The notes: generated from the sequence alone by a model not told the origin. 36,813 nucleotides of DNA from an uncultured virus (IMG/VR IMGVR_UViG_3300029305_000620) (IMGVR_UViG_3300029305_000620); one strand, 5' to 3'. Counted from the first letter of the stretch, positions 1,012 through 36,813 are shown. Made by a program: numbers and translations.

Positions 1012-2547
1012 ATGTCAGAGGTTTACCTAACATCCGACGAGTACATCATGTACCTTCGGAAATCGAGGGCGGACAATCCGCTGGAATCAGTAGAAGAAGT
1101 GCTGGAGAAGCACGAAAAGATGCTGCAGGACTTCGCGTTGAGAACGCTGGGCGGATACATCCCCGAGCACTGCATCCTGCGGGAGATCGGATCGGGGGAG
1201 ACAATCGCCGAACGTGAGAAAATGCAGGAGGTGCTTGCACGGGTAGAAGACCCAAAGGTGCGCGGCTGCATCGTCGCTGATAGCTCCCGCCTTTCCCGTG
1301 GCGACCTCTCCGAATGCGGCACCGTCGTCAATGCTTTTCGGTATACGCGGACGGAGATCATCACGCCGCGCATTACCTACGACCTGACGAACGAGATGCA
1401 CCGGCAGTTTTTCGAGCAGGAGCTCATGCAGGGCCGCTCATACCTGGAATACACAAAGCGCGTGCTGCTGATAGGCCGGGAGAATGCCATCAAGCAAAAA
1501 GGCGCATACATCGGCAACATCCCGCCGTTCGGCTATGATAAGGCCGTCATCGACGATGTGCACACCCTCAAACCGAACGATGCTGCTGCTGCCGTGCTGA
1601 TGGCCTTTGAGATGTACGTCAACGAGGGTAAGACCTACCTACAGATCGCCCGCCACCTTGACAGCCTGGGCATCAGGCCAACCGTGAGCAAGGTGTGGGA
1701 GAAATCGTCCATCCGGGCAATGCTACAAAACAAGCACTATATCGGCATGGTATACTTCGGGAAGTACAGAACAGAAAAGACCATCGAAAACGGCCAGGTC
1801 GTGAGCCGATCCGTGCGACAGCCGGATGACAAGGTGATCATTGCCAAGGGCAAGCACCAGGCAATCGTGCCGCTGGAGCTGTTCGAGGCGGCCCAGGAAA
1901 AGATGGACAATAACCCTCGTGCGAAATGGGACATGCCCCTGCAGAATCCGCTGGCCGGCTTGATCGTCTGCCATAGCTGCGGCAAAGCGTTGGCACAGCA
2001 CCCGTACCCACACGCAGAGACACGCATCGAGTGCCGGAACCGACACGGCTGCAAGGCAAACTCCGCCAAGCTCCGCGAGGTGATTGAGGCCGTGGCCTTC
2101 GCGCTGGAAATGGAACACCTGCCGGACATGGAGGTCAAGCTGCACAACGATGAGGGCAAGTCCGCCAGCATCCAGAAGAAGCTGATCGAAAAAATGAACG
2201 CCGAAATGGCTGAACTGCACGCCAAGGAAGAACGGCAGCATGATCTGCTGGAAAGTGGCACTTACTCCGAGGAAGTGTTCGTGAAGCGGAACAAAGCCCT
2301 TCATGCTCAGATGGAGGAGCTGCGGTCGAAGATTTACGAGGCCAAGCAGAACATGCCCAAGGAGATCAACTATCAGAACAAGATCATCAAGCTGCAGGAT
2401 GCCATCGCTGGCCTGCGGGATGACACAATCTCCGCAGAACAAAAAAACCGCCTCTTGAAGGCGATAGTCAAGAAAATAGAGTATGAGTTCATCGAGCGCA
2501 AGCGCCGCCAGACGAGGTTCCGGCTGCACATCACCTTGCAGCTCTAA
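1012..2547 (+). CDS. Large serine recombinase (phage integrase)
   Basis: Catalytic YLRKSR, SRLSR, recombinase-domain PPFGY, zinc ribbon CHSC...CRNRHGC, coiled coil; RBS AGGAGG before ATG 1012. Confidence 0.95.
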   Translation: MSEVYLTSDEYIMYLRKSRADNPLESVEEVLEKHEKMLQDFALRTLGGYIPEHCILREIGSGETIAEREKMQEVLARVEDPKVRGCIVADSSRLSRGDLSECGTVVNAFRYTRTEIITPRITYDLTNEMHRQFFEQELMQGRSYLEYTKRVLLIGRENAIKQKGAYIGNIPPFGYDKAVIDDVHTLKPNDAAAAVLMAFEMYVNEGKTYLQIARHLDSLGIRPTVSKVWEKSSIRAMLQNKHYIGMVYFGKYRTEKTIENGQVVSRSVRQPDDKVIIAKGKHQAIVPLELFEAAQEKMDNNPRAKWDMPLQNPLAGLIVCHSCGKALAQHPYPHAETRIECRNRHGCKANSAKLREVIEAVAFALEMEHLPDMEVKLHNDEGKSASIQKKLIEKMNAEMAELHAKEERQHDLLESGTYSEEVFVKRNKALHAQMEELRSKIYEAKQNMPKEINYQNKIIKLQDAIAGLRDDTISAEQKNRLLKAIVKKIEYEFIERKRRQTRFRLHITLQL

Positions 2548-2561
2548 AGTTATACCCAATA

Positions 2562-2607
2562 TGTACATCATGGGGAGGCAGGTTCACCCGCTTACCTATG
2601 ATGTACA
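2562..2607. other. Candidate intact attP site
   Basis: 46-bp imperfect inverted repeat (22-bp arms, 18/22 match, outer 10 bp TGTACATCAT perfect) around central TC, 14 bp after integrase stop. Confidence 0.75.
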
Positions 2608-2631
2608 CACCAAAGAAAGGTAGTGTTATCA

Positions 2632-2817
2632 ATGGCTGAGAAGAAAATGACCATCCGTGAAAAGCTGGAACTGATGAAGGAGATCGCCCAGAGGAACAGG
2701 GAGCGCCGGCAGGAGTTTCTGGAGAAGGAAAAGCGGGAACGGAACGAAAAGCTGTTTGACCTGTACGTGAACGGCATGATCTCACGAGAAGACTTTGAGC
2801 GCAGATATAAAAAGTGA
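2632..2817 (+). CDS. Small charged SHOCT-like protein; candidate recombination directionality factor
   Basis: RBS GAAAGG; C-terminal LFDLYVNGMISREDFERR; immediately after attP-like site. Confidence 0.65.
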   Translation: MAEKKMTIREKLELMKEIAQRNRERRQEFLEKEKRERNEKLFDLYVNGMISREDFERRYKK

Positions 2818-2820
2818 AAG

Positions 2821-2851
2821 AAGGGCCGGGGAGAAATCCCTGGCTCTTTTT
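2821..2851 (+). terminator. Intrinsic terminator
   Basis: AAGGGCCGGGGA-GAAA-TCCCTGGCTCTT stem with T run. Confidence 0.75.
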
Positions 2852-2902
2852 CTGTTTGCGAAAATTTCTTTGAAAAAAGTCAGAAAACTTGTATTTTGCC
2901 CC

Positions 2903-2931
2903 TTGCATTTCCACGGAATCCGTGGTAATAT
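2903..2931 (+). promoter_or_regulatory. Sigma-A promoter of accessory operon 1 with palindromic operator
   Basis: TTGCAT-17bp-TAATAT; CCACGGAATCCGTGG (2911-2925) lies in the spacer. Confidence 0.8.
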
Positions 2932-2985
2932 AGTAAACGTAGACAGGAACCCCGCACTACCGACCGCACGAAAGGAAGCAAGACA

Positions 2986-3300
2986 ATGACTATCACCTTC
3001 ACCCGCGAATCCATTGCCGCCCACCTCGCCGACTGCCAGTCCATGGAGCACGACACCCAGGACACCTGCACCTACTACCTGCACATGACCGACGAGCAGC
3101 AGATGCTCAAGGGCTTCTATGACGCAGACATCACCTTCACGGCTGACCGCGACTTCACCCCCTACATGGACGACGAGGACTTCTCCCGCTTCTACGATGA
3201 CGAGGTGCTGACCAACGAGGGCTTCGCCGCCGTCGTTGACAGCCTCTACGAGCAGGCGGTGGCCTACTTCACCGAGCTGGCCGCCTGGGACGAGGAATAA
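2986..3300 (+). CDS. Highly acidic 104-aa hypothetical protein
   Basis: RBS AAAGGA; 25 D/E vs 4 K/R by manual count. Confidence 0.85.
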   Translation: MTITFTRESIAAHLADCQSMEHDTQDTCTYYLHMTDEQQMLKGFYDADITFTADRDFTPYMDDEDFSRFYDDEVLTNEGFAAVVDSLYEQAVAYFTELAAWDEE

Positions 3301-3311
3301 GCAAAGAGGAC

Positions 3312-3336
3312 ACCGGGCGGGGCGGTATAACCCCGC
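3312..3336 (+). promoter_or_regulatory. Pre-RBS H-type pseudoknot motif 1
   Basis: ACCG-G-GCGGGG-CGGT-ATAA-CCCCGC. Confidence 0.65.
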
Positions 3337-3352
3337 ATGGAGGACAGAAACC

Positions 3353-3652
3353 ATGAAGAAGTATCGCGTGAATGAATCGGAGCATTTCAACCTGCACAGC
3401 ATGTATGAACGGCTGAAGGTGATGGAGATCGAAATGGAGTGCGACGAACGCCCGTGGGATGATTCCATTTTCGATAGGATCGAAGAAGTCGAAAACCTGA
3501 TGGACAAGGCATATTGTGTCGGTGCACTCGTTGATTGGCCCACGCTGAAGCGTATCCGGGAGATTCAGGCTGAACGGAAGATGATTCGTTATAATCGCTG
3601 CTTAGCTGCTGGCCACTCTGAACGAGATGCTGCGGTTGCATTCCAGCTATAA
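3353..3652 (+). CDS. Hypothetical protein (99 aa)
   Basis: RBS GGAGGA, ATG 3353 (MKKYRVNESEHF...). Confidence 0.8.
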   Translation: MKKYRVNESEHFNLHSMYERLKVMEIEMECDERPWDDSIFDRIEEVENLMDKAYCVGALVDWPTLKRIREIQAERKMIRYNRCLAAGHSERDAAVAFQL

Positions 3653-3656
3653 ACAA

Positions 3657-3682
3657 CTCCCCGCCCCGGAGGTCACGAGGGC
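3657..3682 (+). promoter_or_regulatory. Pre-RBS pseudoknot motif 2
   Basis: CTCC-CC-GCCCC-GGAG-GTCAC-GAGGGC (bulged A in stem 2). Confidence 0.5.
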
Positions 3683-3694
3683 AGAAAGGTCACC

Positions 3695-3922
3695 ATGAGC
3701 AAGCAATTCTTCATCATGTTCGAGAGCGACCGGATTGTGTGCGGAAGCAATGACCACATGCTGTGCAACGCAAGCACGATCAGGAGTGCGAAGGCAGCTA
3801 TTAGGAGTGCGAGGAAGAAGGACTACATCGCGGAGCACAACCCGAGAAACTTCCGTGTGTATGACTCCTGGGCCGATGGGCCGGAAGATCAGCACGTTCC
3901 TTGTGTGTACCAAGAAGATTGA
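3695..3922 (+). CDS. Hypothetical protein (75 aa)
   Basis: RBS GAAAGG; ORF track. Confidence 0.8.
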   Translation: MSKQFFIMFESDRIVCGSNDHMLCNASTIRSAKAAIRSARKKDYIAEHNPRNFRVYDSWADGPEDQHVPCVYQED

Positions 3923-3929
3923 CAGATCC

Positions 3930-3957
3930 GCCCCGCCGGGAGGCATCATATCCCGGC
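3930..3957 (+). promoter_or_regulatory. Pre-RBS pseudoknot motif 3
   Basis: GCC-CC-GCCGGGA-GGC-ATCATA-TCCCGGC. Confidence 0.6.
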
Positions 3958-3972
3958 AGAAAGGATGGAACC

Positions 3973-4392
3973 ATGAGGAACAAGCTCCCATACATCTGGG
4001 CCTACCTCGACGGCAAGAAGCTGGTCGAAGTGATCCAGGCAGCCCTCGACAACAACATGCTGGTTGATGATGTCAAAAAGCGGCTCATCGCCGAGAACCC
4101 CGGCCACGAAGTCACGTTCAAGGTCGTAACGAATCAAAGGAGGAAAAACATGAACACCAAGAAATGGACTGACACCCTGCCCGCTGATGTGTATGAGCGC
4201 TTGTGTAACTGCAGTACGATCAGGGCTGATCTGCCCGCGCTTGTCAACGCCAAATGGGAAGACTACAAGCGCAGAGGGAAGAACGACTACCTTGACAAGC
4301 AAGATGCGCTCGTCGAGGTACTTGAGCTGCTGGACGAAAATGGGCGTGATTTCTACCTGAGCAAAGATCAGTGGGATGCCCTGTGTAAATAA
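3973..4392 (+). CDS. Hypothetical protein, apparent in-frame fusion of two small genes (internal start 4150)
   Basis: RBS GAAAGGA before ATG 3973; second strong RBS AAGGAGG before in-frame ATG 4150. Confidence 0.75.
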   Translation: MRNKLPYIWAYLDGKKLVEVIQAALDNNMLVDDVKKRLIAENPGHEVTFKVVTNQRRKNMNTKKWTDTLPADVYERLCNCSTIRADLPALVNAKWEDYKRRGKNDYLDKQDALVEVLELLDENGRDFYLSKDQWDALCK

Positions 4393-4398
4393 CACTCC

Positions 4399-4424
4399 GC
4401 CCCGCCGGAGGCATCGTATCCGGC
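4399..4424 (+). promoter_or_regulatory. Pre-RBS pseudoknot motif 4
   Basis: GCC-CC-GCCGGA-GGC-ATCGTA-TCCGGC. Confidence 0.6.
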
Positions 4425-4438
4425 AGAAAGGACGATCC

Positions 4439-4672
4439 ATGAAAACCACTTGCAAGATGTACCGCTTCTGTTTCTACTTCGACAAGCCCATCCCTGAAAT
4501 TGCAGAGGATGGAACCCACAAGACACGGGCAAGCTGCCGATCCGTCAAGGGGGCTGAGAATTATGCCAGGAAGCATGCTGAGATATTCACCAGGCACCTC
4601 TACGCTCCGACCAAGTGCGTTATCGAATATAACACGACCACCGGAAAGAAGTCCCGCGAAATCACATTCTGA
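4439..4672 (+). CDS. Basic hypothetical protein (77 aa)
   Basis: RBS GAAAGGA, ATG 4439 (MKTTCKMYRF...). Confidence 0.75.
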   Translation: MKTTCKMYRFCFYFDKPIPEIAEDGTHKTRASCRSVKGAENYARKHAEIFTRHLYAPTKCVIEYNTTTGKKSREITF

Positions 4673-4679
4673 CACAACC

Positions 4680-4707
4680 TGCCCGCCCGTGGGCATTGTA
4701 CGCGGGC
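4680..4707 (+). promoter_or_regulatory. Pre-RBS pseudoknot motif 5
   Basis: TGCC-C-GCCCGTG-GGCA-TTGTA-CGCGGGC; 4681-4715 identical (35 bp) to 6692-6726. Confidence 0.65.
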
Positions 4708-4721
4708 AGAGAGGAAACACC

Positions 4722-5282
4722 ATGCACAACATCTGCTATCGCTCATTCCCTGCAAGTACCTCGCGCAATGAGATCATCAGCACCGTGCAGCACATCGTCA
4801 GCACCAGCGGCGACGGATACGGCACGGAGCACGTCATTTTCCATCCGATGCTCACCTGCGACGACTACGAGGCCGCAAAGGAGTTCCTTCACCAGCACGA
4901 CGACGGCTTCTACCCCGGCGTGGCGGTCAAGTATTACGACCTGGCAAGCATGGCCGCCAGCAAACAGGTCGAAGCGCTGCATGCAAAGATCAGCGAAACC
5001 AGGAAAGCACGTCAGGAGTACATGGCTGAGCATACTGTGAAGAAATTCAAGGCCGACTTTGTTGGCTGTCAGAAATGCGGGTCGAAGCTGAGCCGCGTGC
5101 TGCTCCCAAGCGACTATTGCCCGCTCTGCCGGAACGACCTTCGGAGCGCCACCACGCTTGACCGCATTGCCAGGTACGACGCGAAGATCAAGGATCTGGA
5201 GCAGAAAGTCCGGCAGGAGCGCATCAAGTCGAAGGACAAGGCCAAGGTCTGCTGGCTTGTGATGTTCGAGTACCATTCTTAA
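4722..5282 (+). CDS. Hypothetical zinc-ribbon/coiled-coil protein (186 aa)
   Basis: CQKC...CPLC between coiled-coil segments; RBS GAGGA. Confidence 0.8.
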   Translation: MHNICYRSFPASTSRNEIISTVQHIVSTSGDGYGTEHVIFHPMLTCDDYEAAKEFLHQHDDGFYPGVAVKYYDLASMAASKQVEALHAKISETRKARQEYMAEHTVKKFKADFVGCQKCGSKLSRVLLPSDYCPLCRNDLRSATTLDRIARYDAKIKDLEQKVRQERIKSKDKAKVCWLVMFEYHS

Positions 5283-5288
5283 CCACCA

Positions 5289-5314
5289 GCCCCACCCGCC
5301 GGGCAAAAGGCGGG
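5289..5314 (+). promoter_or_regulatory. Intergenic pseudoknot motif 6
   Basis: GCCC-CA-CCCGCC-GGGC-AAAA-GGCGGG. Confidence 0.6.
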
Positions 5315-5347
5315 AATAAATATCCCAAATCGAAAGGAATTGTAACT

Positions 5348-5608
5348 ATGAAAAAAGACAACGAAATGAAGGCTGCTGTATACATGCGTGTTGGGAGCAA
5401 AGAACAACTCGCGGGCGGCGAAAAGGAAATGGACTTCAAGGAGCTGCGCAGGCTGTCAGGCATGACGCAAAAGGAGTTCCAGGATTATTTCGGCATTCCG
5501 AAACGGAACATCGAAGACTGGGATCGTGGCATTGCGAAGTGCAAGCCGTACCTGATTGATCTGATGCTGTATAAACTGAAAAAGGAAGGAATCATCCGGG
5601 ACGAATAG
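5348..5608 (+). CDS. Small XRE-HTH regulator (Aca-like position); alternative start 5429
   Basis: FKELRRLSGMTQKEFQDYFGIPKRNIEDWDRG HTH pattern; last gene of operon 1. Confidence 0.85.
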   Translation: MKKDNEMKAAVYMRVGSKEQLAGGEKEMDFKELRRLSGMTQKEFQDYFGIPKRNIEDWDRGIAKCKPYLIDLMLYKLKKEGIIRDE

Positions 5609-5620
5609 TCCCGGATTTTT
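5594..5620 (+). terminator. Intrinsic terminator ending operon 1
   Basis: ATCCGGGAC-GAATA-GTCCCGGAT plus T run. Confidence 0.75.
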
Positions 5621-5656
5621 CTTTGAAAAAAATCTGAAAAAACTTCATTTTCCCCC

Positions 5657-5686
5657 TTGACGAAACCACGGAATCCGTGGTATTAT
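5657..5686 (+). promoter_or_regulatory. Sigma-A promoter of accessory operon 2 with same operator
   Basis: TTGACG-18bp-TATTAT; CCACGGAATCCGTGG at 5666-5680; shares upstream A/T tract and AAAGGAAGCAAGACAATGA leader end with promoter 1. Confidence 0.8.
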
Positions 5687-5743
5687 ATACACGTGGAAAG
5701 GAACACAGGGCAACAGCCCGGACGAAAGAAAGGAAGCAAGACA

Positions 5744-6076
5744 ATGAAGGCTATGAACACCATGATGTACGTGAGCAACCTGATCGAGCAGATGGCCGAG
5801 TACCAGAGCATCATCAAGAACGCCAAGGACTACGACGAGGCCAAGCGGTGGGCAAGCCGGATGATCGGCTTCATCGACGGTGCGCACACCGTCGCGAACA
5901 CCATGATCTGCAAGGAGAACAACGACTTCACCGGCGAGATGAGCGACGTGCTTGCGCACTGGGAAGCCAGAGTTTATGAAACCCTGGCCCACAAGGCCAT
6001 CGAGTTCAAAATGGATCACGACCTGATCATGAAGCTCCTTACCACCCGCGACGAAATCAATGCCACCATCGGCTGA
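5744..6076 (+). CDS. Helical hypothetical protein (110 aa)
   Basis: RBS AAAGGA, ATG 5744 (MKAMNTMMYV...). Confidence 0.8.
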   Translation: MKAMNTMMYVSNLIEQMAEYQSIIKNAKDYDEAKRWASRMIGFIDGAHTVANTMICKENNDFTGEMSDVLAHWEARVYETLAHKAIEFKMDHDLIMKLLTTRDEINATIG

Positions 6077-6086
6077 CACCCACGAC

Positions 6087-6111
6087 ACCGGGCCGGGCGG
6101 TATAACCCGGC
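6087..6111 (+). promoter_or_regulatory. Pre-RBS pseudoknot motif 7
   Basis: ACCG-G-GCCGGG-CGGT-ATAA-CCCGGC; compensatory pair change vs motif 1. Confidence 0.65.
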
Positions 6112-6122
6112 AGGAGGACACC

Positions 6123-6272
6123 ATGAAGCAGTACATCTACACCGAAAAGGGCGCGGCCATCATGGCCCGCCGCTTCCCCGGCATCAAGGCCGGCGACACC
6201 TACGACCGCCCCGTCACCAAGGACATCCTCAAGCAGTACGTCAAGGCTGGCTTCATTGCCAAGAAGAAATAA
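6123..6272 (+). CDS. Small basic hypothetical protein (49 aa)
   Basis: RBS AGGAGG, MKQYIYTEKGAAIMARRF... Confidence 0.75.
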   Translation: MKQYIYTEKGAAIMARRFPGIKAGDTYDRPVTKDILKQYVKAGFIAKKK

Positions 6273-6285
6273 GGAGGACACCAAC

Positions 6286-6684
6286 ATGAAGAAGATCACC
6301 GGTTACCTGATCGACGTGGCCAACGAGAAGGCCAGCGTCACGACCATCGACTACTCCCTGCAGGGCTTCTACGACATCCTGGGCTGCCGCCTGGTCGAGA
6401 TGCCCACGCGCTGGATCGGCGCACGCAAGGGCCGCCCCTACGTCATCATCTGCGACGAGGAGGGCATGTTCGCAGACGCTCCCAAGGTCAGCGCCATCGA
6501 CAACATGGGCCAGGTGATGCTGGTCGGCAACCTGTTCATTGTAAAGGCCGGGCTTGAGGGTGAGCTGGACAGCCTCGACGAGGACGACATCAAGTACCTG
6601 GAGCGCTTCATCAGCCCTGAAGCCACCCGCATGTTCCGCAGCCCCTACCCCATGCTCCACCAGTGCGAATACTACGGCCGATAA
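6286..6684 (+). CDS. DUF3846-like protein
   Basis: SLQGFYDILGC.LVE...IICDEEG...LVGNLFIV pattern; RBS AAGGAGG. Confidence 0.7.
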   Translation: MKKITGYLIDVANEKASVTTIDYSLQGFYDILGCRLVEMPTRWIGARKGRPYVIICDEEGMFADAPKVSAIDNMGQVMLVGNLFIVKAGLEGELDSLDEDDIKYLERFISPEATRMFRSPYPMLHQCEYYGR

Positions 6685-6691
6685 ACAGACC

Positions 6692-6718
6692 GCCCGCCCG
6701 TGGGCATTGTACGCGGGC
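6692..6718 (+). promoter_or_regulatory. Pre-RBS pseudoknot motif 8
   Basis: GCC-C-GCCCGTG-GGC-ATTGTA-CGCGGGC. Confidence 0.65.
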
Positions 6719-6734
6719 AGAGAGGATGATCCCC

Positions 6735-7034
6735 ATGATGTACACCATTTACATGCTTCCCCGTGAACACGCCAACACCTTCATGGACTACCGCTGGGCG
6801 ATGGCCCACGGCGGCGTGAACAAGTCCGAATACGAGCGCGTCTACACCGGCTACATCGACCCGCGAGAGAACGAAAGCGTGCAGGATGTGCTGGAGCTCA
6901 TCTTCATGGAGCACAACGCGCCGGATCGCCCCAACAGCTACCACATGCGCAGCCTGAGTATTTCCGACCTGGTGGAGCTGGAAGGCTCCGGCACCTGGTT
7001 CTGCGACTCTTTCGGCTTCAAGAGGATCAACTGA
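6735..7034 (+). CDS. YodL-domain protein
   Basis: YERVYTG...LELIF..HN..RP..Y..RSLSISDLV...WFCDSFGF signature. Confidence 0.85.
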   Translation: MMYTIYMLPREHANTFMDYRWAMAHGGVNKSEYERVYTGYIDPRENESVQDVLELIFMEHNAPDRPNSYHMRSLSISDLVELEGSGTWFCDSFGFKRIN

Positions 7035-7058
7035 CGATCAACTTACCATCAACTTACG
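7026..7058 (+). repeat. 3 x 11-bp tandem repeat
   Basis: ATCAACTGACG / ATCAACTTACC / ATCAACTTACG. Confidence 0.8.
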
Positions 7059-7072
7059 AAAGGACGATCACC

Positions 7073-7303
7073 ATGACCGACACCATAACCCGCCCACAGT
7101 TTGACCAAAGGATGCGCGAATACTTCTTCGACAAGGGATGGCGCATCAACGACGACGGCCTGCTGGTTCTCACAGCAAAGCAGGCCAGCAAGGCCGACCT
7201 GGAGCGCAGCATTCGCAACCCGGCCAAGCGCGTCCTCATGATCCCCTGCCTGCACGGCTGCGCCCTCCTTTTTGAGGGCCAGCACTTCATCATCGTAAAC
7301 TGA
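7073..7303 (+). CDS. Hypothetical protein (76 aa)
   Basis: RBS GAAAGGA; ORF track. Confidence 0.8.
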   Translation: MTDTITRPQFDQRMREYFFDKGWRINDDGLLVLTAKQASKADLERSIRNPAKRVLMIPCLHGCALLFEGQHFIIVN

Positions 7304-7335
7304 CGACACGCCCACAGGGCAGAAAGGACAGCACC

Positions 7336-7496: not shown

Positions 7497-7531
7497 AAAA
7501 AAGGGAGAGGCCGAAGCCTCTCCCTCTTTTT
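7497..7531. terminator. Bidirectional intrinsic terminator
   Basis: A run-AGGGAGAGGC-CGAA-GCCTCTCCCT-T run. Confidence 0.85.
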
Positions 7532-7600
7532 GTTGCTGCGGTGGTGCTCGCAGCTGTTGCGCCATACACAAGCCAGAAGCGTGGTATATGGATCTGTCGC
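7497..7600 (-). ncRNA. Candidate ~100-nt small RNA
   Basis: Perfect TTGACA(7635-7630)-17bp-TATAAT(7612-7607) promoter, two hairpins, terminator, no RBS-led ORF. Confidence 0.55.
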
Positions 7601-7640
7601 GGCAGTATTATACATCCGCCGCCCCGACTTGTCAAGTTGC

Positions 7641-7686: not shown

Positions 7687-8523
7687 TTATTTCAGCAGGG
7701 CCGCCCAGGTCAGCGGGCCACAGTACCCGTCAACCTCCAGCCCCTTGGCCTTCTGGAACTTCTTCACGGCTGCCAGCGTTTTCGGGCCGAAGCTGCCGTC
7801 CACGTCGCCGCAGGAATAGCCAAGCGCATTCAGGAGCCGCTGCAGCGTCTTCACCTGATTGCCCTTGCTGCCGTTCTTCAACACGTTCAATTCTACCATG
7901 CACGTTTTCCCTCCAGATTCGCCCGCTGTGGCCCCTCCGGCCTCGGGGACGGGTATTTGTTCATCCTTCGCCGCAGGCGGCTCTACGGGCGTTTCTGCGC
8001 CGTCCAGGACACCAGGAAGCGCGGCCCAGTGCGTCCAGCTGCGGGAGGACACCTTTGTCTTGACCACGCCGTAGGAGTGCCCGCGCGCTTCCACCGCATA
8101 ACCGCCGCCGATATAAACGCCTGTGTGGCTCATGCGGCCCTTGTCATTGATGTGGTACAGGATCACGCCCGGCACATCCGGCAGGCTGTCAATGGTGCCC
8201 TTCTTGTCCCACGCGGTTTTCGTCCATTGGCTGTTCGCGCCGCTGACCAACTCCTGCCCGGCGGCCTTGCAGCTGTAGCGCGTGAGCTGGGCGCAGTCAT
8301 ACGCCTGCTTGCCGTTGTACTTGCAGCCCGTGCAGGAGCTTTGCTTGCCGCTCAGGACGGGGCAGTTGTTGTACATGTTCGACTTGTACTCCGGGTAGGC
8401 TTTGGCGCGCTCCTTGCGGAAAGCGGGCGTGCATTTCTTCTCGCCATAGCCGCCGTAGATATACGCGCACCCGATCTTGCTGATGGCATAGTTCGCGATG
8501 GTCTGACCTTTGATTGTTGCCAT
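7687..8523 (-). CDS. Endolysin: NlpC/P60-like catalytic domain + C-terminal PG_binding_1 domain
   Basis: YDCAQL, HTGVYIG, EARG catalytic motifs; LKNGSKG.QVKTLQRLL...DGSFGPKT.AAVKKFQ...VDG.CGPLTW. Confidence 0.9.
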   Translation of the reverse strand: MATIKGQTIANYAISKIGCAYIYGGYGEKKCTPAFRKERAKAYPEYKSNMYNNCPVLSGKQSSCTGCKYNGKQAYDCAQLTRYSCKAAGQELVSGANSQWTKTAWDKKGTIDSLPDVPGVILYHINDKGRMSHTGVYIGGGYAVEARGHSYGVVKTKVSSRSWTHWAALPGVLDGAETPVEPPAAKDEQIPVPEAGGATAGESGGKTCMVELNVLKNGSKGNQVKTLQRLLNALGYSCGDVDGSFGPKTLAAVKKFQKAKGLEVDGYCGPLTWAALLK

Positions 8524-9377: not shown

Positions 9378-10754
9378 TTATTCACCTGTCGTGGCAGTCG
9401 TGGTTTCAGTCAAGCCCAGGTCAGCCTTTAGCTGGTCGATGGTGACGGGTTGCCAACTCCTTGCCGTCTGGCTCCAGCGGTAGTAGTACACGCCGTTCAA
9501 ATTGTCAGGCGGGGGAAGCACTTCCGCGTCAAGCGGTTTGTAAATAGCGTCGAGCGCAAATTTGATGTGCGGATACTGTGCGGCCCAATCTGTAGCAATG
9601 TAGATGCCGGCGCTACCGTCGATTTCTCCGAGGAAATTGCCGGTTTTCTCCTTGTCGTAGGAGATGTATTTCGGCGCACCGCTTGTGTCACCACTTGCGT
9701 AGAGTCCGTACAGACAGGGGGCGAGAAACATTTCCATCTTTGACAAAATCCAGCTTGACTGCGACTCTCCCGCATCGTTCTGAACAAAAATCGGGAAATA
9801 TGCGCCGCCCTTGTCGAAGGAATACTTGTTCAACGGGACAGGACATACCTTATAACCCAGTATCTGAGTCGTGCCGTTCACCGTGACAGACAGGATTTCC
9901 TTGCCTTCGGTTTCGCCGTCCCACACAATCCACCCTCCCGGGATTTCATACGCCCAGCAAGGCCGATTCGCGATGTGCCCTTCCTCGCCCTCCAGCGCAT
10001 CCATGTCAGGGGTAGGAACGTCAAGCAGTTCCCTGTCCACCTTCTTGATGTCGGTGGTCGTGGTTTCGACTTCCGCCGCGCTCCTGATCGTCAGGACGGG
10101 GGAATCCACAGGGTCAGCGAACACAGCCGTGCCATAGAAGCCGTCAGAACCACCCGGCACAAGCAGGATAAGGTACGTTGCATCCGGGGCAGGGTTTTCG
10201 AGAGGAAAATCATCGTCAGTCATTGCCGTGTTGCCGAATACATAGGCTTCCTGCCCAACCGCAAAAGCGGAAATATCCACGCACTTGCTTGTGTACTCAT
10301 TGCCGCCGATGATGATCGTGTAGGTTTCACCAGCCACAGGGGAGGATACAGGCGGGGCGGGAAGCTGATACCGCCCGTCCATAGCCACCATCTCTGCATC
10401 CTGATAGATGTAGGCGTAGCCCTTCTCGGTGGTGACTTCCTTCCATGCCAGCCGTTCCACCCACGCCGTATTGCCATCCTTGTCGGTGACAAGCTGCTGG
10501 TGGGCGGCTTTATCGCCACCAAGGATGGAGGCTTTTTCGTCCGCGTTGGCCGCACTCTTTGCGGCATCAGCTGCACTGGTAGCCGCAGCCGCCGCCTGGC
10601 TCAGGGCCGCAGACGCGCTGGTGGCCGCCGCAGCCGTGAGGTTGACAGCAGCAGCAGCGCTTTCGTTCGCGGCCTCAATACCCTTCTCCATGTGCACAAG
10701 GTGCTCCGCGGAGAATACCTGACCGTTTTTCAGGTTCAGTCTTTCATAAGGCAT
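9378..10754 (-). CDS. Putative fibre/minor structural protein
   Basis: N-terminal SAEHLVHMEKGI structural-anchor-like motif, Ala-rich coiled segment; tail-module position. Confidence 0.6.
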   Translation of the reverse strand: MPYERLNLKNGQVFSAEHLVHMEKGIEAANESAAAAVNLTAAAATSASAALSQAAAAATSAADAAKSAANADEKASILGGDKAAHQQLVTDKDGNTAWVERLAWKEVTTEKGYAYIYQDAEMVAMDGRYQLPAPPVSSPVAGETYTIIIGGNEYTSKCVDISAFAVGQEAYVFGNTAMTDDDFPLENPAPDATYLILLVPGGSDGFYGTAVFADPVDSPVLTIRSAAEVETTTTDIKKVDRELLDVPTPDMDALEGEEGHIANRPCWAYEIPGGWIVWDGETEGKEILSVTVNGTTQILGYKVCPVPLNKYSFDKGGAYFPIFVQNDAGESQSSWILSKMEMFLAPCLYGLYASGDTSGAPKYISYDKEKTGNFLGEIDGSAGIYIATDWAAQYPHIKFALDAIYKPLDAEVLPPPDNLNGVYYYRWSQTARSWQPVTIDQLKADLGLTETTTATTGE

Positions 10755-28638: not shown

Positions 28639-28713
28639 TGGTGCGGTTGGTGGGATTCGAACCCACGGCCCACGGATTAAAAGTCCGTTGCGCTACCACT
28701 GCGCTACAGCCGC
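28639..28713 (-). tRNA. tRNA-Lys (anticodon UUU)
   Basis: Cloverleaf GCGGCTG..., D arm GCGC/GCGC, ACGGA-CTTTTAA-TCCGT, GGTTCGAATCC, encoded CCA; one C.A mismatch in acceptor stem. Confidence 0.92.
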
Positions 28714-34195: not shown

Positions 34196-36813
34196 TTATT
34201 CAAACCACCTCTGAATGTCCTTCTGCTTTTGCGCCCGGTCATATCCCAGGGCCTCATAAGCGGTCAGGAGCCGCGCCTGCAGGTCGGCGTATCCCTTGCC
34301 GGTTGCCTTCAGGTCGATCAGCTGCTGCTTGTACTGGGTGGTGATCTGCGACGCCAGTGTGGTCTTGCTCACGCCGTTGTCCAGGTACTCCTTGATGGTA
34401 GTTCTCAGGTTCTCGCCTGTTTCCACCGCCTGGAAGAAGTCTGCGTATTTCCGGTAGTCACCGGCGGCGATCCCTTCATCCCGCATCTCCTTCCATTTGT
34501 CCACTTCCCAGTATGCATCGTCTTCATCAGCGTATGCACCGATCTTCAGCAGATACTGCTTCGCGGCATCCTCGTCAGCGTCTCCGCTGATGAAGCGCTC
34601 CTGCATGGCCTTCTTCAGGCCGGTCTTCATCGCATCTTCGCTCACCATCTTGCTCAGTAGCATGTACTCCCGGTAGTCCTGCGCCTTCTGCGTGTCGCCG
34701 TTCAGCTCTGCCGCTACTATGCGCTCGTAGTACACAGCGTTCTTGCTCTGGTAGAAGGGCACATTTTCCAGCATCGCCTGTCCCACGCTGAAAGCGTCCG
34801 GGGCGGTCCATTGGCTGTTCATGATCAGGTTGCGTGTTCGGCGCACCTCTCGGCTGATGTTCTTTGCCGGCAGTCCTGCCATGTTGGCTATCGTACCCAC
34901 AAAGTTCTCGTAGTCCTTCCAGGTCAGCGTCTTTTCAGGATCCGCCGCCTTGGTGATGAAGGTCTTGCCGTAGTCGATGATGTCTGCCACCGCCGCCATG
35001 TCGGGACGCTCCACCTCGTATCCTGCGAACAGGCTCATCAGGTCGGATACGTAAGGCAGCATGCCCAGCGGGTTCAGATTGTCCAGGATGTTCGCCGTCG
35101 CGCGGTCCGCATAGCGTTCCACCACGTTGCGCTTGTCCTCGTCATCGTTCCACGCCTGTGCCAGCGCCGCCATCGCGCCCGCCAGCACCTGGGATACGAT
35201 CACGCCGCCCAGGATCTTCCCGCGCTGCTTCTTGTCGTGTTTTCCCAGGAATGCGTCGTACAGCATGTTGATGCTCAGCGTCGGCTCAGCCATGAAGCTG
35301 GTCGCCATCCTGTGCAAGGCGTTCTTGCTTCGCATCAGGTTGCTGCGGGTGATCACGCTGTCGTACACCTGGGTGTGGTCGATCACGTCATCGAATCGGT
35401 CTCCGCACAGCTGCAGGAATTCCTCGCTGTTCACGTCCATACCCGGATGCAGCTCCGCCTGTTCGGCTTTGACTGCCTTCCAGATCAGTCCCCAGGTCCA
35501 CTGGTCAGCCTTTCCCGGTGCAGCCGTCAGCCAGTCCAGCGCGCGCTTGTACGCTTCCTTTCCGGCCTCCCACTTGCTGTCCGCCTTCAGGCGGCTGTAG
35601 GCTTCCATTGCACTCAGGTGTTCGTCAGCGATGTACTGCCGCGCCGTCAATCCCATGCCCACGTCGAATTTGCCCATGTCCTTGATAACCGCCGTGCCAG
35701 CGTATTTCATCATCTCGTCCCATGTTCCCTTGCCGGGGCGGTAGAAGGGATTCTTCGTGAAGTACTTCGGGCTGATGTAGGCCATCGCACGCGCCATGGC
35801 GGTGGGCTGCTGCAGCACCACGCTGGCAGAGGCCATCACTGCGCCGCGCTTGAATGCGCCGATCATGCTGTTCACCAGGTCGGTGGCACGCTCGTCTCCC
35901 ATGGCCGCGCCGTTGAGGTCCTTCAGCAGCTGCGTCATGTAGTCCTGGCTTGCCTGTCCGTACTTCTGCCCGATCAGCGCACGGATGGTGTTCACCGTGC
36001 CGTCGGGTTCCATCACCTTGTGGTTCAGCAGGCGTTTCATGTTCTCGATCGGCTGCACCATCGCCGCGTAGGTCGCCATCTTGTGGATGTGTTCAGAAAC
36101 CGTGTCGGTCAGTCCGCCCACCACCAGCGTCGCGTTCGCGCCGTGCTGAAGCCTGTGGGTGAAGCCGCTGTTCTTCAGGCGCCCGGTTCCCACGTTCTCA
36201 CCCTGCGGGCCTTCATCGCCGCGCTGGAAGCGCTGCTCCGCTGCGGTATGGAACGGGATGTAGTACGTTTCGTTGAACTTCTTGTACCCGTACATCTCCA
36301 TGCTGGCAGCGTTGCCGTAATCCGCCATCGTGGTGGACAGGAAGCCCACCAGCGTATCCGCATAGGCTTTCTGCTCATCCGTCAGCCAGCGGCTGATCTT
36401 GGCGATATCCGCCGCATCCAGCTGATGGCTCTCCTTCTTCGCCGCGTACAGGCCCTCGCCCTTCTTGGTGATATCCTTGTACTGGAAGCCGCCGTACAGC
36501 AGATGCTCCGTCTGGTACAGCTTGTTGGTGCTTTCGCGCTTGGCGATGGCGTAGATTTCTGCCGCTTCCTCGCGGGTCAGCTCAATTTGATGGCCCTGGC
36601 TCGTCTTCATCTTCAGCTTGCCGTCAGCCACCCATGCGCCGTAGTGGTACTTCTCCTTCGCTTCCTGCACGAAGCCCTTGCCCTGTGCCACGATCTTCGC
36701 ATAGTCGCTCTGTCCCATGCGGACCTCGTCGAACACTTCCTTCAGCAGCGGGCTGTTCAGGTGCTCCATGAAGTAGATGGGCGTCATGTTGCCGGTGCGG
36801 ATGTTCTCGTCCA
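34196..36813 (-). CDS. Very large helical phage protein (polyvalent/ejection-type), 5' end outside window
   Basis: Frame is open to window edge (>870 aa); helical composition, hydrophobic stretch, TQVYDS and NPLGMLPYV motifs; family assignment tentative. Confidence 0.7.
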   Translation of the reverse strand, partial: DENIRTGNMTPIYFMEHLNSPLLKEVFDEVRMGQSDYAKIVAQGKGFVQEAKEKYHYGAWVADGKLKMKTSQGHQIELTREEAAEIYAIAKRESTNKLYQTEHLLYGGFQYKDITKKGEGLYAAKKESHQLDAADIAKISRWLTDEQKAYADTLVGFLSTTMADYGNAASMEMYGYKKFNETYYIPFHTAAEQRFQRGDEGPQGENVGTGRLKNSGFTHRLQHGANATLVVGGLTDTVSEHIHKMATYAAMVQPIENMKRLLNHKVMEPDGTVNTIRALIGQKYGQASQDYMTQLLKDLNGAAMGDERATDLVNSMIGAFKRGAVMASASVVLQQPTAMARAMAYISPKYFTKNPFYRPGKGTWDEMMKYAGTAVIKDMGKFDVGMGLTARQYIADEHLSAMEAYSRLKADSKWEAGKEAYKRALDWLTAAPGKADQWTWGLIWKAVKAEQAELHPGMDVNSEEFLQLCGDRFDDVIDHTQVYDSVITRSNLMRSKNALHRMATSFMAEPTLSINMLYDAFLGKHDKKQRGKILGGVIVSQVLAGAMAALAQAWNDDEDKRNVVERYADRATANILDNLNPLGMLPYVSDLMSLFAGYEVERPDMAAVADIIDYGKTFITKAADPEKTLTWKDYENFVGTIANMAGLPAKNISREVRRTRNLIMNSQWTAPDAFSVGQAMLENVPFYQSKNAVYYERIVAAELNGDTQKAQDYREYMLLSKMVSEDAMKTGLKKAMQERFISGDADEDAAKQYLLKIGAYADEDDAYWEVDKWKEMRDEGIAAGDYRKYADFFQAVETGENLRTTIKEYLDNGVSKTTLASQITTQYKQQLIDLKATGKGYADLQARLLTAYEALGYDRAQKQKDIQRWFE

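Follow-up and report, generated by a model that had tools for sequence, protein, structure and literature searches.

Pseudoknotted leaders fused to Shine-Dalgarno boxes in the small-gene operons of an uncultured prophage: a putative family of portable phage RNA modules

IMGVR_UViG_3300029305_000620 is a stretch of DNA of 36,813 nucleotides from an uncultured virus in IMG/VR, and the whole of it is called the window here. Eight spacers in an array of small genes within it carry a compact RNA element that we call a leader. Comparison with related sequences indicates that these leaders belong to a large family, absent from Rfam and spread over hundreds of uncultured phages, prophages and mobile elements. 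Both stems of the fold are under selection in the sense strand, and the fold is fused to the Shine-Dalgarno (SD) box of the gene behind it and conserved where the flanking genes differ. The original prediction for this DNA had taken the elements to be portable cassette leaders selected for their RNA structure, and this is supported, because both stems covary in relatives and the fold is that of the sense strand. As for function, we see about an even chance that the leaders are portable intercistronic translation-initiation modules that also act as recombination junctions.

In all eight spacers a GC-rich hairpin (stem S2) lies between the upstream stop codon and the downstream SD, and a run of 3-4 bases that stops 1-2 nt short of S2 can pair with the start of the S2 loop, so that a second stem (S1) and an H-type pseudoknot with loops L1 and L3 can be drawn. 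All leaders are on the + strand, and the scores given here in bits come from a covariance model built on S2 alone. Family A has two members. The first, m1 (3312..3336; S1 ACCG/CGGU, L1 G, S2 GCGGGG/CCCCGC, L3 AUAA; 34.7 bits), is followed by the SD GGAGGA at 3339-3344 and a start codon at 3353; the other, m7 (6087..6111; S1 ACCG/CGGU, L1 G, S2 GCCGGG/CCCGGC, L3 AUAA; 34.9 bits), is followed by AGGAGGA at 6112-6118 and a start codon at 6123. The sequences bear out the earlier claim that the two differ by one compensatory S2 pair. Family C consists of m3 (3930..3957; S1 GCC/GGC, L1 CC, S2 GCCGGGA/UCCCGGC, L3 AUCAUA; 48.1 bits), with AGAAAGGA at 3958-3965 and a start codon at 3973, and of m4 (4399..4424; 41.3 bits), with AGAAAGGA at 4425-4432 and a start codon at 4439. 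The latter is like m3 minus one whole S2 base pair, also as predicted. In family B, m5 (4680..4707; S1 (U)GCC/GGC(A), L1 C, S2 GCCCGUG/CGCGGGC, L3 AUUGUA; 58.9 bits) precedes AGAGAGGA at 4708-4715 and a start codon at 4722, and m8 (6692..6718; 61.1 bits) precedes AGAGAGGA at 6719-6726 and a start codon at 6735. Their reported identity was found to be 100% over 35 bp (4681-4715 vs 6692-6726), and the preferable S2 in both is GCCCGUG/CGCGGGC, which has 7 bp and a 9-nt loop.

The remaining two leaders are less typical. The divergent m2 (3657..3682; 21.8 bits) has a proposed S1 CUCC/GGAG and an S2 GCCC/GGGC; it was outside the training set of the S2 model, and it is followed by AGAAAGG at 3683-3689 and a start codon at 3695, with a folding z of +0.32. 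Its only relative (L064:1107-1146) does not have the same S1, and another 4-nt complement is present in the loop there. The lone example m6 (5289..5314; S1 GCCC/GGGC, L1 CA, S2 CCCGCC/GGCGGG, L3 AAAA; 11.1 bits, E 0.31) has its SD about 18 nt past the fold, ahead of a helix-turn-helix (HTH) gene with its start codon at 5348, and no relatives of it were found. Thus the pseudoknot topology that the original prediction had ascribed to all eight spacers can be drawn in each of them, but its claim that the stems abut does not hold for m2, in which there is a 1-nt junction between S2 and S1, and S2 has 4 bp. Seven of the eight end just before the SD (0-3 nt), as had been stated, the exception being m6. 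Six of the eight copies are robust; the pseudoknot reading is weak for m2 and is a single example for m6. A decayed ninth leader (7310..7328, + strand; 13.7 bits) consists of a mini-hairpin, GCCC-aca-GGGC (7310-7320), with AGAAAGGA behind it. Its orthologue in L004, a phage whose integrase is 74% identical to that of the window, is a full family-B leader, and both lie ahead of the same 50-aa membrane-protein gene.

The copies are concentrated in one part of the window. A scan with the S2-only model found them confined to 3300-7330 and to the + strand. The window contains 51 perfect GC-rich hairpins of at least 6 bp per strand (about 1.4/kb), seven of which fall within the approximately 400 nt of the eight spacers, where about 0.55 would be expected. 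A terminator reading was rejected. S2 is followed by the purine-rich SD and not by a U tract, and true U-tailed terminators close both operons of the array. The + strand terminator scan listed no leader, so that none qualifies as an intrinsic terminator; the only terminator-like sites on this strand were at 5594-5616 and 7502-7525, which agrees with the earlier statement that the leaders have no U tails.

S2 was assessed on 110 distinct model hits. It was paired in 98.5% of cells (98.5-100% across the alignments tested), four of its seven pairs changed on both sides, and 0 of 500 shuffles reached the observed values. The pairs included 65 G·U and only one A·C, and this large excess shows that selection acts on the folded sense strand and not on a palindrome in the DNA. 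The closing pair of S2 is G-C in 106 of the 110 copies.

The original prediction had named covariation in stem 1 as a check on the pseudoknot, and S1 does covary in family A. The search pattern for this family left both S1 strands free. Among the matches listed, 65 of 77 unique ones had a complementary S2; CGG formed the first loop bases in 58 of these 65, and CCG stood 1-2 nt before S2 in 56 of the 58, while this S1 rule applied to none of the 12 matches that were without a complementary S2. In a gap-free alignment of 83 distinct family-A copies, the fourth (outer) S1 pair covaries (G-C 35, A-U 24, C-G 9, G·U 2, other 13). It forms in 64 of the 66 distinct copies that are in register (G-C 32, A-U 24, C-G 7, G·U 1), whereas 10,000 permutations average 40.2 and never exceed 53, and the neighbouring columns are unassociated. 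The covariation score of S1 alone was 0.280, as against 0.101 ± 0.015 in shuffles (0 of 500 reached it) and at most 0.079 with a slid partner. Each type of outer pair was seen with 2-5 different S2 sequences and with several L3 sequences. A 4-bp S1 was kept in all seven family-A copies with a 2-nt L1, and single copies had CGCG/CGCG or paired via U·G, via a register shift or with a bulged base.

Other families give evidence of a different type. In family B the conserved sequence has a sharp 5' edge at the first base of S1, and L1 and the first L3 base vary. The S1 halves are matched across families, as neither mixed combination, family-A CCG with family-B GGC or the opposite, is found in any copy. 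The S1 rule was followed by 102 of the 110 model hits. Among 88 listed hairpins outside family B it was followed by 16, all of them leaders of the same type (15 clear and one uncertain), and by none of the remaining 72. Because a joint MAFFT alignment of all families does not bring S1 into common columns, the cross-family test of S1 was made by script and the tool test on the gap-free family-A alignment only. In the model-fitted alignment A3 the family-A rows are misaligned, and the S1 counts there, which have no change on both sides, understate S1. Taken as a whole, the comparison shows two helices, both under selection, as expected of an H-type pseudoknot. L1 spans an S2 of 6-7 bp with 1-2 nt and L3 an S1 of 3-4 bp with 4-6 nt; going by the general rules for such folds and by the T2 gene 32 structure, we judge it feasible for loops of these lengths to cross the grooves.

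The position of the fold with respect to the neighbouring genes was measured on 176 distinct copies of families A and B. A stop codon of an upstream open reading frame lies within 72 nt in 173 of them. The distance from the stop to S1 has a median of 10 nt and a mode of 7-12 nt, with few values below 6, and family B has a second mode at 21-24 nt contributed by a subfamily with a conserved spacer. S2 and the start codon are 12-17 nt apart (median 14-15 nt). A purine-rich box, AGAAAGG or AAGGAGG, abuts S2: the base after S2 was A in all of 91 copies and was followed by GAAAGG, with the variant AAGGAGG in 11 of the 91. The 16S rRNA was sought in five metagenome-assembled genomes (MAGs) for the pairing of AGAAAGG with its tail, and none was found. 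The element is strictly intercistronic and is absent ahead of the first gene behind either promoter of the array, and the leaders of the window are spaced by whole genes, at 270-800 nt. Leader copies always lie on the gene strand in the window, in whole phage records and in MAGs.

Relatives of the leaders are numerous. In IMG/VR, 14 loci were retrieved as integrase relatives. A family-B pattern (m5/m8 type) matched 21 stretches in viral contigs and 101 stretches in species-representative genomes, about 45 of the latter being true copies, and a fuller 34-nt consensus pattern of this family matched at least 132 stretches in metagenome contigs. A family-A pattern (m1/m7 type) matched at least 121 stretches in viral contigs. 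The record titles of the matches name Clostridia, Oscillospiraceae, Verrucomicrobia, Akkermansia, Kiritimatiellae, Lentisphaerae, Prevotella/Bacteroidales and others, and such titles are to be read with the caution that MAG binning of phage contigs is unreliable. A 6.3-Mb MAG titled Verrucomicrobia had 15 copies on eight contigs, and in three Clostridia MAGs all strong copies were on one contig. Whole phage records of 48-57 kb carried 1-4 copies each at E <=0.01, clustered and on one strand. GenBank phage records gave two short unrelated matches to the 4.5-kb array, and PLSDB plasmids gave none. The leaders alone had no match in GenBank phages or PLSDB, to which the low-complexity filter of BLAST may contribute.

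The original prediction knew of no named family for the element, and Rfam 15 gave no match for the window or the related loci. At gathering thresholds the whole window returned a tRNA only; positions 2700-7300 at E up to 10 returned chance microRNA and small nucleolar RNA matches only; and fifteen related loci at E up to 1 returned nothing. The literature on phage intercistronic pseudoknots, supplements being outside the scope of the search, yielded no description of the element, and a full-text search with four leader strings yielded unrelated primer coincidences only.

Several particular arrangements were observed among the relatives. In MAGs labelled Verrucomicrobia, Akkermansia, Kiritimatiellae and Lentisphaerae (G015 with 8 contigs; L052, L065, L081), a conserved gene of 66 aa stands between two leaders spaced by about 250 nt and is followed by a gene of 140 aa that matches DUF2958 weakly; each genome has many copies of this module. 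A subfamily of family B (L023, L029, L064, L067, L087, L125 and others) has the whole spacer conserved from the stop codon on (TAACGCC..GAAA.CATTTCA), with S1 21-24 nt past the stop and a short AT-rich palindrome in the spacer; G003 has a version of this spacer that is without the hairpin. The leaders L017 1244-1285 and L027 2632-2674 have the same downstream gene and the same S2 (GCCGGGG) with different upstream genes, and one has the S1 and loop of family A, the other those of family B. This pair is a leader chimera in which S1 has stayed matched.

The leaders seem to be portable with respect to the genes around them. The original prediction had suggested that the gene content between the leaders be compared with that of related phages, and between the window and L004 the arrays align at the leaders only, with 88-89% identity, while the intervening genes are unrelated and do not align. 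Contigs from other faecal metagenomes likewise share the leader alone, with unrelated sequence on both sides. Family-B leaders stand ahead of genes for 73 distinct, unrelated small proteins, and 50 of the 55 proteins scanned had no Pfam family, a diversity that would be expected if the start module were generic and portable. Of 365 ends of long BLAST matches between one contig and another, 32 lay no more than 40 nt from a leader, compared to 14.7 ± 3.7 for random places, a null that ignores the intergenic position, where match ends cluster anyway. Joints of metagenome contigs on the array (3927>4398, 4709>6689 and others) were considered as deletions and rejected; their sides are 24-37 nt and the leader copies are alike. 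In two deletion variants (window 7310-7320; L077 65-95) there is a mini-hairpin only, in which an upstream GCCC replaces the 5' arm of S2, and this suggests that the mini-hairpin variants arose by slippage between GCCC repeats.

We propose that the element is a cis-acting RNA module inside a polycistronic mRNA of a mobile element. It is a compact H-type pseudoknot: S1 has 3-4 bp and L1 1-2 nt, S2 has 6-7 bp and stacks on S1 without intervening bases, L3 is rich in A/U, and the 3' end is fused to the SD box of the next gene. The fold would begin just past where a ribosome that terminates on the upstream gene can reach, and would for this reason stay folded; the reach of the ribosomal mRNA channel is the basis of this footprint argument. 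It could shield the SD from upstream pairing and from sliding or scanning ribosomes, may stack under the helix of SD and anti-SD, and may block 5'-to-3' decay by 5'-exonucleases. Every cassette would thus bring its own context-independent translation start, and at the DNA level the shared leaders of 30-60 bp would supply homology for cassette exchange. A bolder version of the proposal, which we regard as rather unlikely, makes the leaders phylum-spanning 'bumper' pseudoknots that sit outside the entry channel of the terminating ribosome, stack under the next SD:anti-SD helix and uncouple the cistrons, with a universal RNase that may cut the fold as a mimic of an acceptor stem. If this were true, any cassette dropped into the array would be translated at a set, context-free rate, the operon mRNA might be cut into protected units, and the leaders would correspond, as natural and mobile elements, to the synthetic 'insulator' parts of operon engineering.

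Several observations weigh against the translation-module reading. The element is dispensable for some genes, as indicated by the decayed copy at 7310-7320, the mini-hairpin variants and the spacers that have no hairpin. The folding energies of single copies are unremarkable (z +0.32 to -2.33, with 2 to 129 of 200 shuffles folding equally well), so that the support comes from position and comparison and not from energy. Three family-A copies (L155, L184, L224) have an uncompensated S1 mismatch. In family B, S1 (GCC/GGC) is invariant and its possible fourth pair does not covary; an invariant stem is one that covariation cannot test. Sequence conservation is above what structure would need, one S2 being common to 76 of the 110 copies, and U22, U25 and A26 in the loop hardly vary. 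With a rigid fold placed directly against the SD, translation could be hindered as well as helped. A search for RNA runs that contain the region found none. Finally, the 16S tail of Bacillota, which we take to be of the CCUCCUUUCU type, its complementarity to AGAAAGG and the ribosome-footprint argument enter the proposal as our assumptions.

The high conservation could have another cause. The leaders might be operators for a sequence-specific RNA-binding protein, of the element or of the host, that co-ordinately represses or activates the cassette genes, as gp32 does on the T4 gene 32 pseudoknot. Loop and stem sequences that are strongly conserved across many contigs would suit such a protein, and an intercistronic pseudoknot of about 28 nt placed 5' of the SD is a proven nucleation site for a T4 protein (PMC535899). 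However, several leader families with different S1 and loops coexist in one operon of the window, and a single sequence-specific protein would not suit all of them; leaders are common to the window and L004, but operators and HTH regulators differ; no protein cluster is general within about 4 kb (the commonest is found in 25 of 78 partly overlapping loci); and there are just 12-17 nt between fold and start, with no repeats of the UUAAA type. We therefore regard the operator explanation as unlikely. Somewhat less probable still is that the leaders are processing signals at which an endonuclease (RNase P cutting in L1 through acceptor-stem mimicry, or RNase Y, E or J) produces monocistronic mRNAs with a protective 5' hairpin. 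A tRNA acceptor has a G1-C72 pair plus a discriminator A, which the closing G-C pair of S2 and the invariant A after it resemble, and the spread across phyla suits a universal enzyme. RNase P is reported to cleave a small pseudoknot in its loop 1 if the RNA has RCCA at the 3' end (PMC12710915), and this counts for processing; the leaders, by contrast, have no CCA after the fold and nothing equivalent to a T-loop.

The role could also lie in the DNA, where the leaders would be recombination junctions for moving or swapping cassettes, comparable to PeSL cassettes or integron attC sites, and the RNA fold would be incidental. They are the only sequence common to differing arrays and are found with unrelated flanks in other metagenomes; match ends accumulate near them (with the null that ignores intergenic position); m5 and m8 are identical over 35 bp; and the deletion variants fit slippage between GCCC repeats. 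For duplex DNA, though, the 65:1 asymmetry of G·U to A·C and the covariation of S1 would be meaningless, and orientation and the distances to stop, SD and start are fixed. As a full explanation we give this one the same small probability as RNA processing, but the translation-module explanation that we prefer includes recombination at the leaders and is in no conflict with it. Another explanation would be plain hairpins between cistrons that stabilise 3' ends, mark pause sites or attenuate weakly, with the upstream complementarity irrelevant. S2 is indeed the dominant and well-supported helix, S1 has just 3 bp and is invariant in families B and C, and the mini-hairpin variants have no S1. Yet the S1 of family A covaries through three Watson-Crick pair types, conservation starts exactly at S1, and U tracts are found at the terminators that close both operons and not at the leaders. 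Of all the explanations we find this one the least probable. Three further candidates were rejected: repressor sites resembling stoperators, as the window and L004 share leaders while operator and regulator differ; a riboswitch, as the unpaired bases differ between families; and a signal for stop-codon readthrough or frameshifting, as the downstream genes are in other frames with their own SD and start.

By its gene content the window is a myovirus-like prophage. The - strand from about 9.4 kb on encodes tail sheath, baseplate proteins, a tape measure protein and a major head protein (PHROGs), and a large serine recombinase at 985-2547 (+; Pfam) is the only recombinase seen in the window. Between this integrase and the structural genes lies the leader array, which is composed of two + strand operons of small genes. 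The promoter of operon 1 (2903..2931, +; TTGCAT, a 17-nt spacer and TAATAT) was read from the sequence and that of operon 2 (5657..5686, +; TTGACG, an 18-nt spacer and TATTAT) was read and also found by the promoter scan. Both promoters are sigma-70-like, the two promoter regions are 78% identical, and each contains, between its -35 and -10 boxes, the 15-bp palindromic operator CCACGGAATCCGTGG, at 2911-2925 and at 5666-5680, respectively. On the + strand the promoter scan listed sites at 2870-2897 and 5657-5686 and none inside a leader. The hairpin listing and the terminator scan gave a U-tailed intrinsic terminator for operon 1 (5594..5625, +; 5594-5616 in the scan) and a bidirectional, U-tailed one for operon 2 (7502..7534, +; 7502-7525 in the scan). 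The first gene of operon 1 (2986) and that of operon 2 (5744) have no leader motif ahead of them.

For three of the 12 array genes (2986-7303), Pfam matches at E <=0.01 were accepted. These include DUF3846 in the gene at 6286-6684 and YodL in that at 6735-7034; the HTH gene at 5348-5608, a small gene that ends operon 1, has a weak match below the Pfam cut-off. A DNA_pol_B_thumb match in the gene at 7073-7303 was sub-threshold (E 0.0089) and was disregarded. L004 has the same layout of promoter and palindrome (8055-8075, 9462-9482) with another palindrome (CCCC..GGGG type) and another HTH gene, and the promoter palindrome and HTH gene look like an exchangeable regulator-operator module. The gene at 3973-4392 is a single frame of 139 aa with an internal SD and an in-frame ATG at about 4138-4150, and L087 has a separate gene (3825-3986), preceded by a family-B leader, for just the first 54 or so aa of its product. 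This may reflect a fusion of two cassettes, or the one gene may yield two products. A perfect consensus promoter (7607-7635, -; TTGACA, a 17-nt spacer and TATAAT, 12/12) is aimed leftwards at the bidirectional terminator of operon 2 (7497-7530). In the structural-gene half there is a tRNA gene (28642-28713, -; 77 bits). An 863-aa protein (34196-36787, -) matches positions 2526-3154 of the 3513-position profile phrog_22978 (E 9e-166), and by this match it resembles a piece of a very large polyvalent-type phage protein.

The accessory regions of phages and mobile elements hold most of their unknown genes, many of which probably serve host takeover or anti-defence, and how such genes are exchanged and still correctly expressed in a new context is an open question. 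The leaders offer a testable module for autonomous translation starts and for homology patches in cassette exchange. They also give metagenome studies a practical marker of accessory-gene arrays, and synthetic operons a candidate insulator part of natural origin.

Among known systems, integron attC sites are 57-141 bp long, lie 3' of the cassette and act as folded single-stranded DNA for a tyrosine integrase. The leader arrays are like integrons in having small, mostly unknown genes on the same strand, imperfect palindromes as the only conserved sequence and varying cassette content. They differ in that the leaders, 26-30 nt long and fused to the SD, show a pseudoknot with G·U pairs of the RNA type and adjoin a serine integrase; they are thus too short for attC and beside the wrong type of recombinase, while R and L boxes were not searched for. 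In the rep activator pseudoknot of IncI-alpha/IncB plasmids a hairpin loop pairs downstream, next to the SD, and formation depends on translation of a leader peptide. The likeness is a hairpin-loop pseudoknot by the SD, which there affects translation of the next cistron; in the leaders, by contrast, the loop pairs upstream of the hairpin and the SD is outside the fold. Type III antitoxin RNAs (ToxI-like) are tandem head-to-tail pseudoknot repeats directly upstream of an endoribonuclease toxin gene, whereas the leaders are separated by whole genes and are not tandem.

Phages offer further parallels, the nearest of which are PeSL cassettes and SAS/ESAS repeats. The T4/RB69 gene 32 pseudoknot is likewise a compact fold of about 28 nt, 5' of the SD in a phage intercistronic region, but it is present in a single copy per genome, lies >40 nt from the start with UUAAA repeats and nucleates gp32 (PMC535899). 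The leaders occur in many copies per operon, 12-17 nt from the start, and do not have the >40 nt of UUAAA/UAAA repeats bound cooperatively by single-stranded-DNA-binding protein that mark an operator of the gene 32 type. The PeSL (promoter early stem-loop) cassettes of T4-type phages are small, conserved regulatory cassettes that flank small unknown open reading frames in hyperplastic regions, where recombination between copies shuffles genes (PMC2839356, PMC4122927). A PeSL consists of a strong sigma-70 promoter and a terminator stem-loop (PMC2839356), whereas the leaders are internal to operons and continuous with the SD, and neither a promoter match nor a U tail is found in them, so that they do not join an early promoter to a terminator stem-loop. 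Start-associated sequences (SAS) and their extended form (ESAS) in Cluster K mycobacteriophages are repeats at the translation starts of a subset of non-structural phage genes; they have one orientation, hold an SD-like box and show gene-family associations conserved between phages (PMC3203893). About half of the SAS copies have the upstream inverted repeat, with a 4-13 bp spacer, and a role in translation initiation is suspected (PMC3203893). Their sequences, a 13-bp GGGATAGGAGCCC box and 17-bp inverted repeats, are unrelated to the leaders, and the consulted portion of the report gives no pseudoknot or covariation (PMC3203893). SAS/ESAS are limited to one actinophage cluster (PMC3203893), whereas the leaders occur in many uncultured phages and in MAGs labelled with several phyla. 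No leader in the window has the 13-bp GGGATAGGAGCCC box 3-8 bp before the start, and the likeness is functional and positional only. The leaders are thus a new RNA motif of wide distribution, and in general kind they belong with the known repeated leader cassettes of phages.

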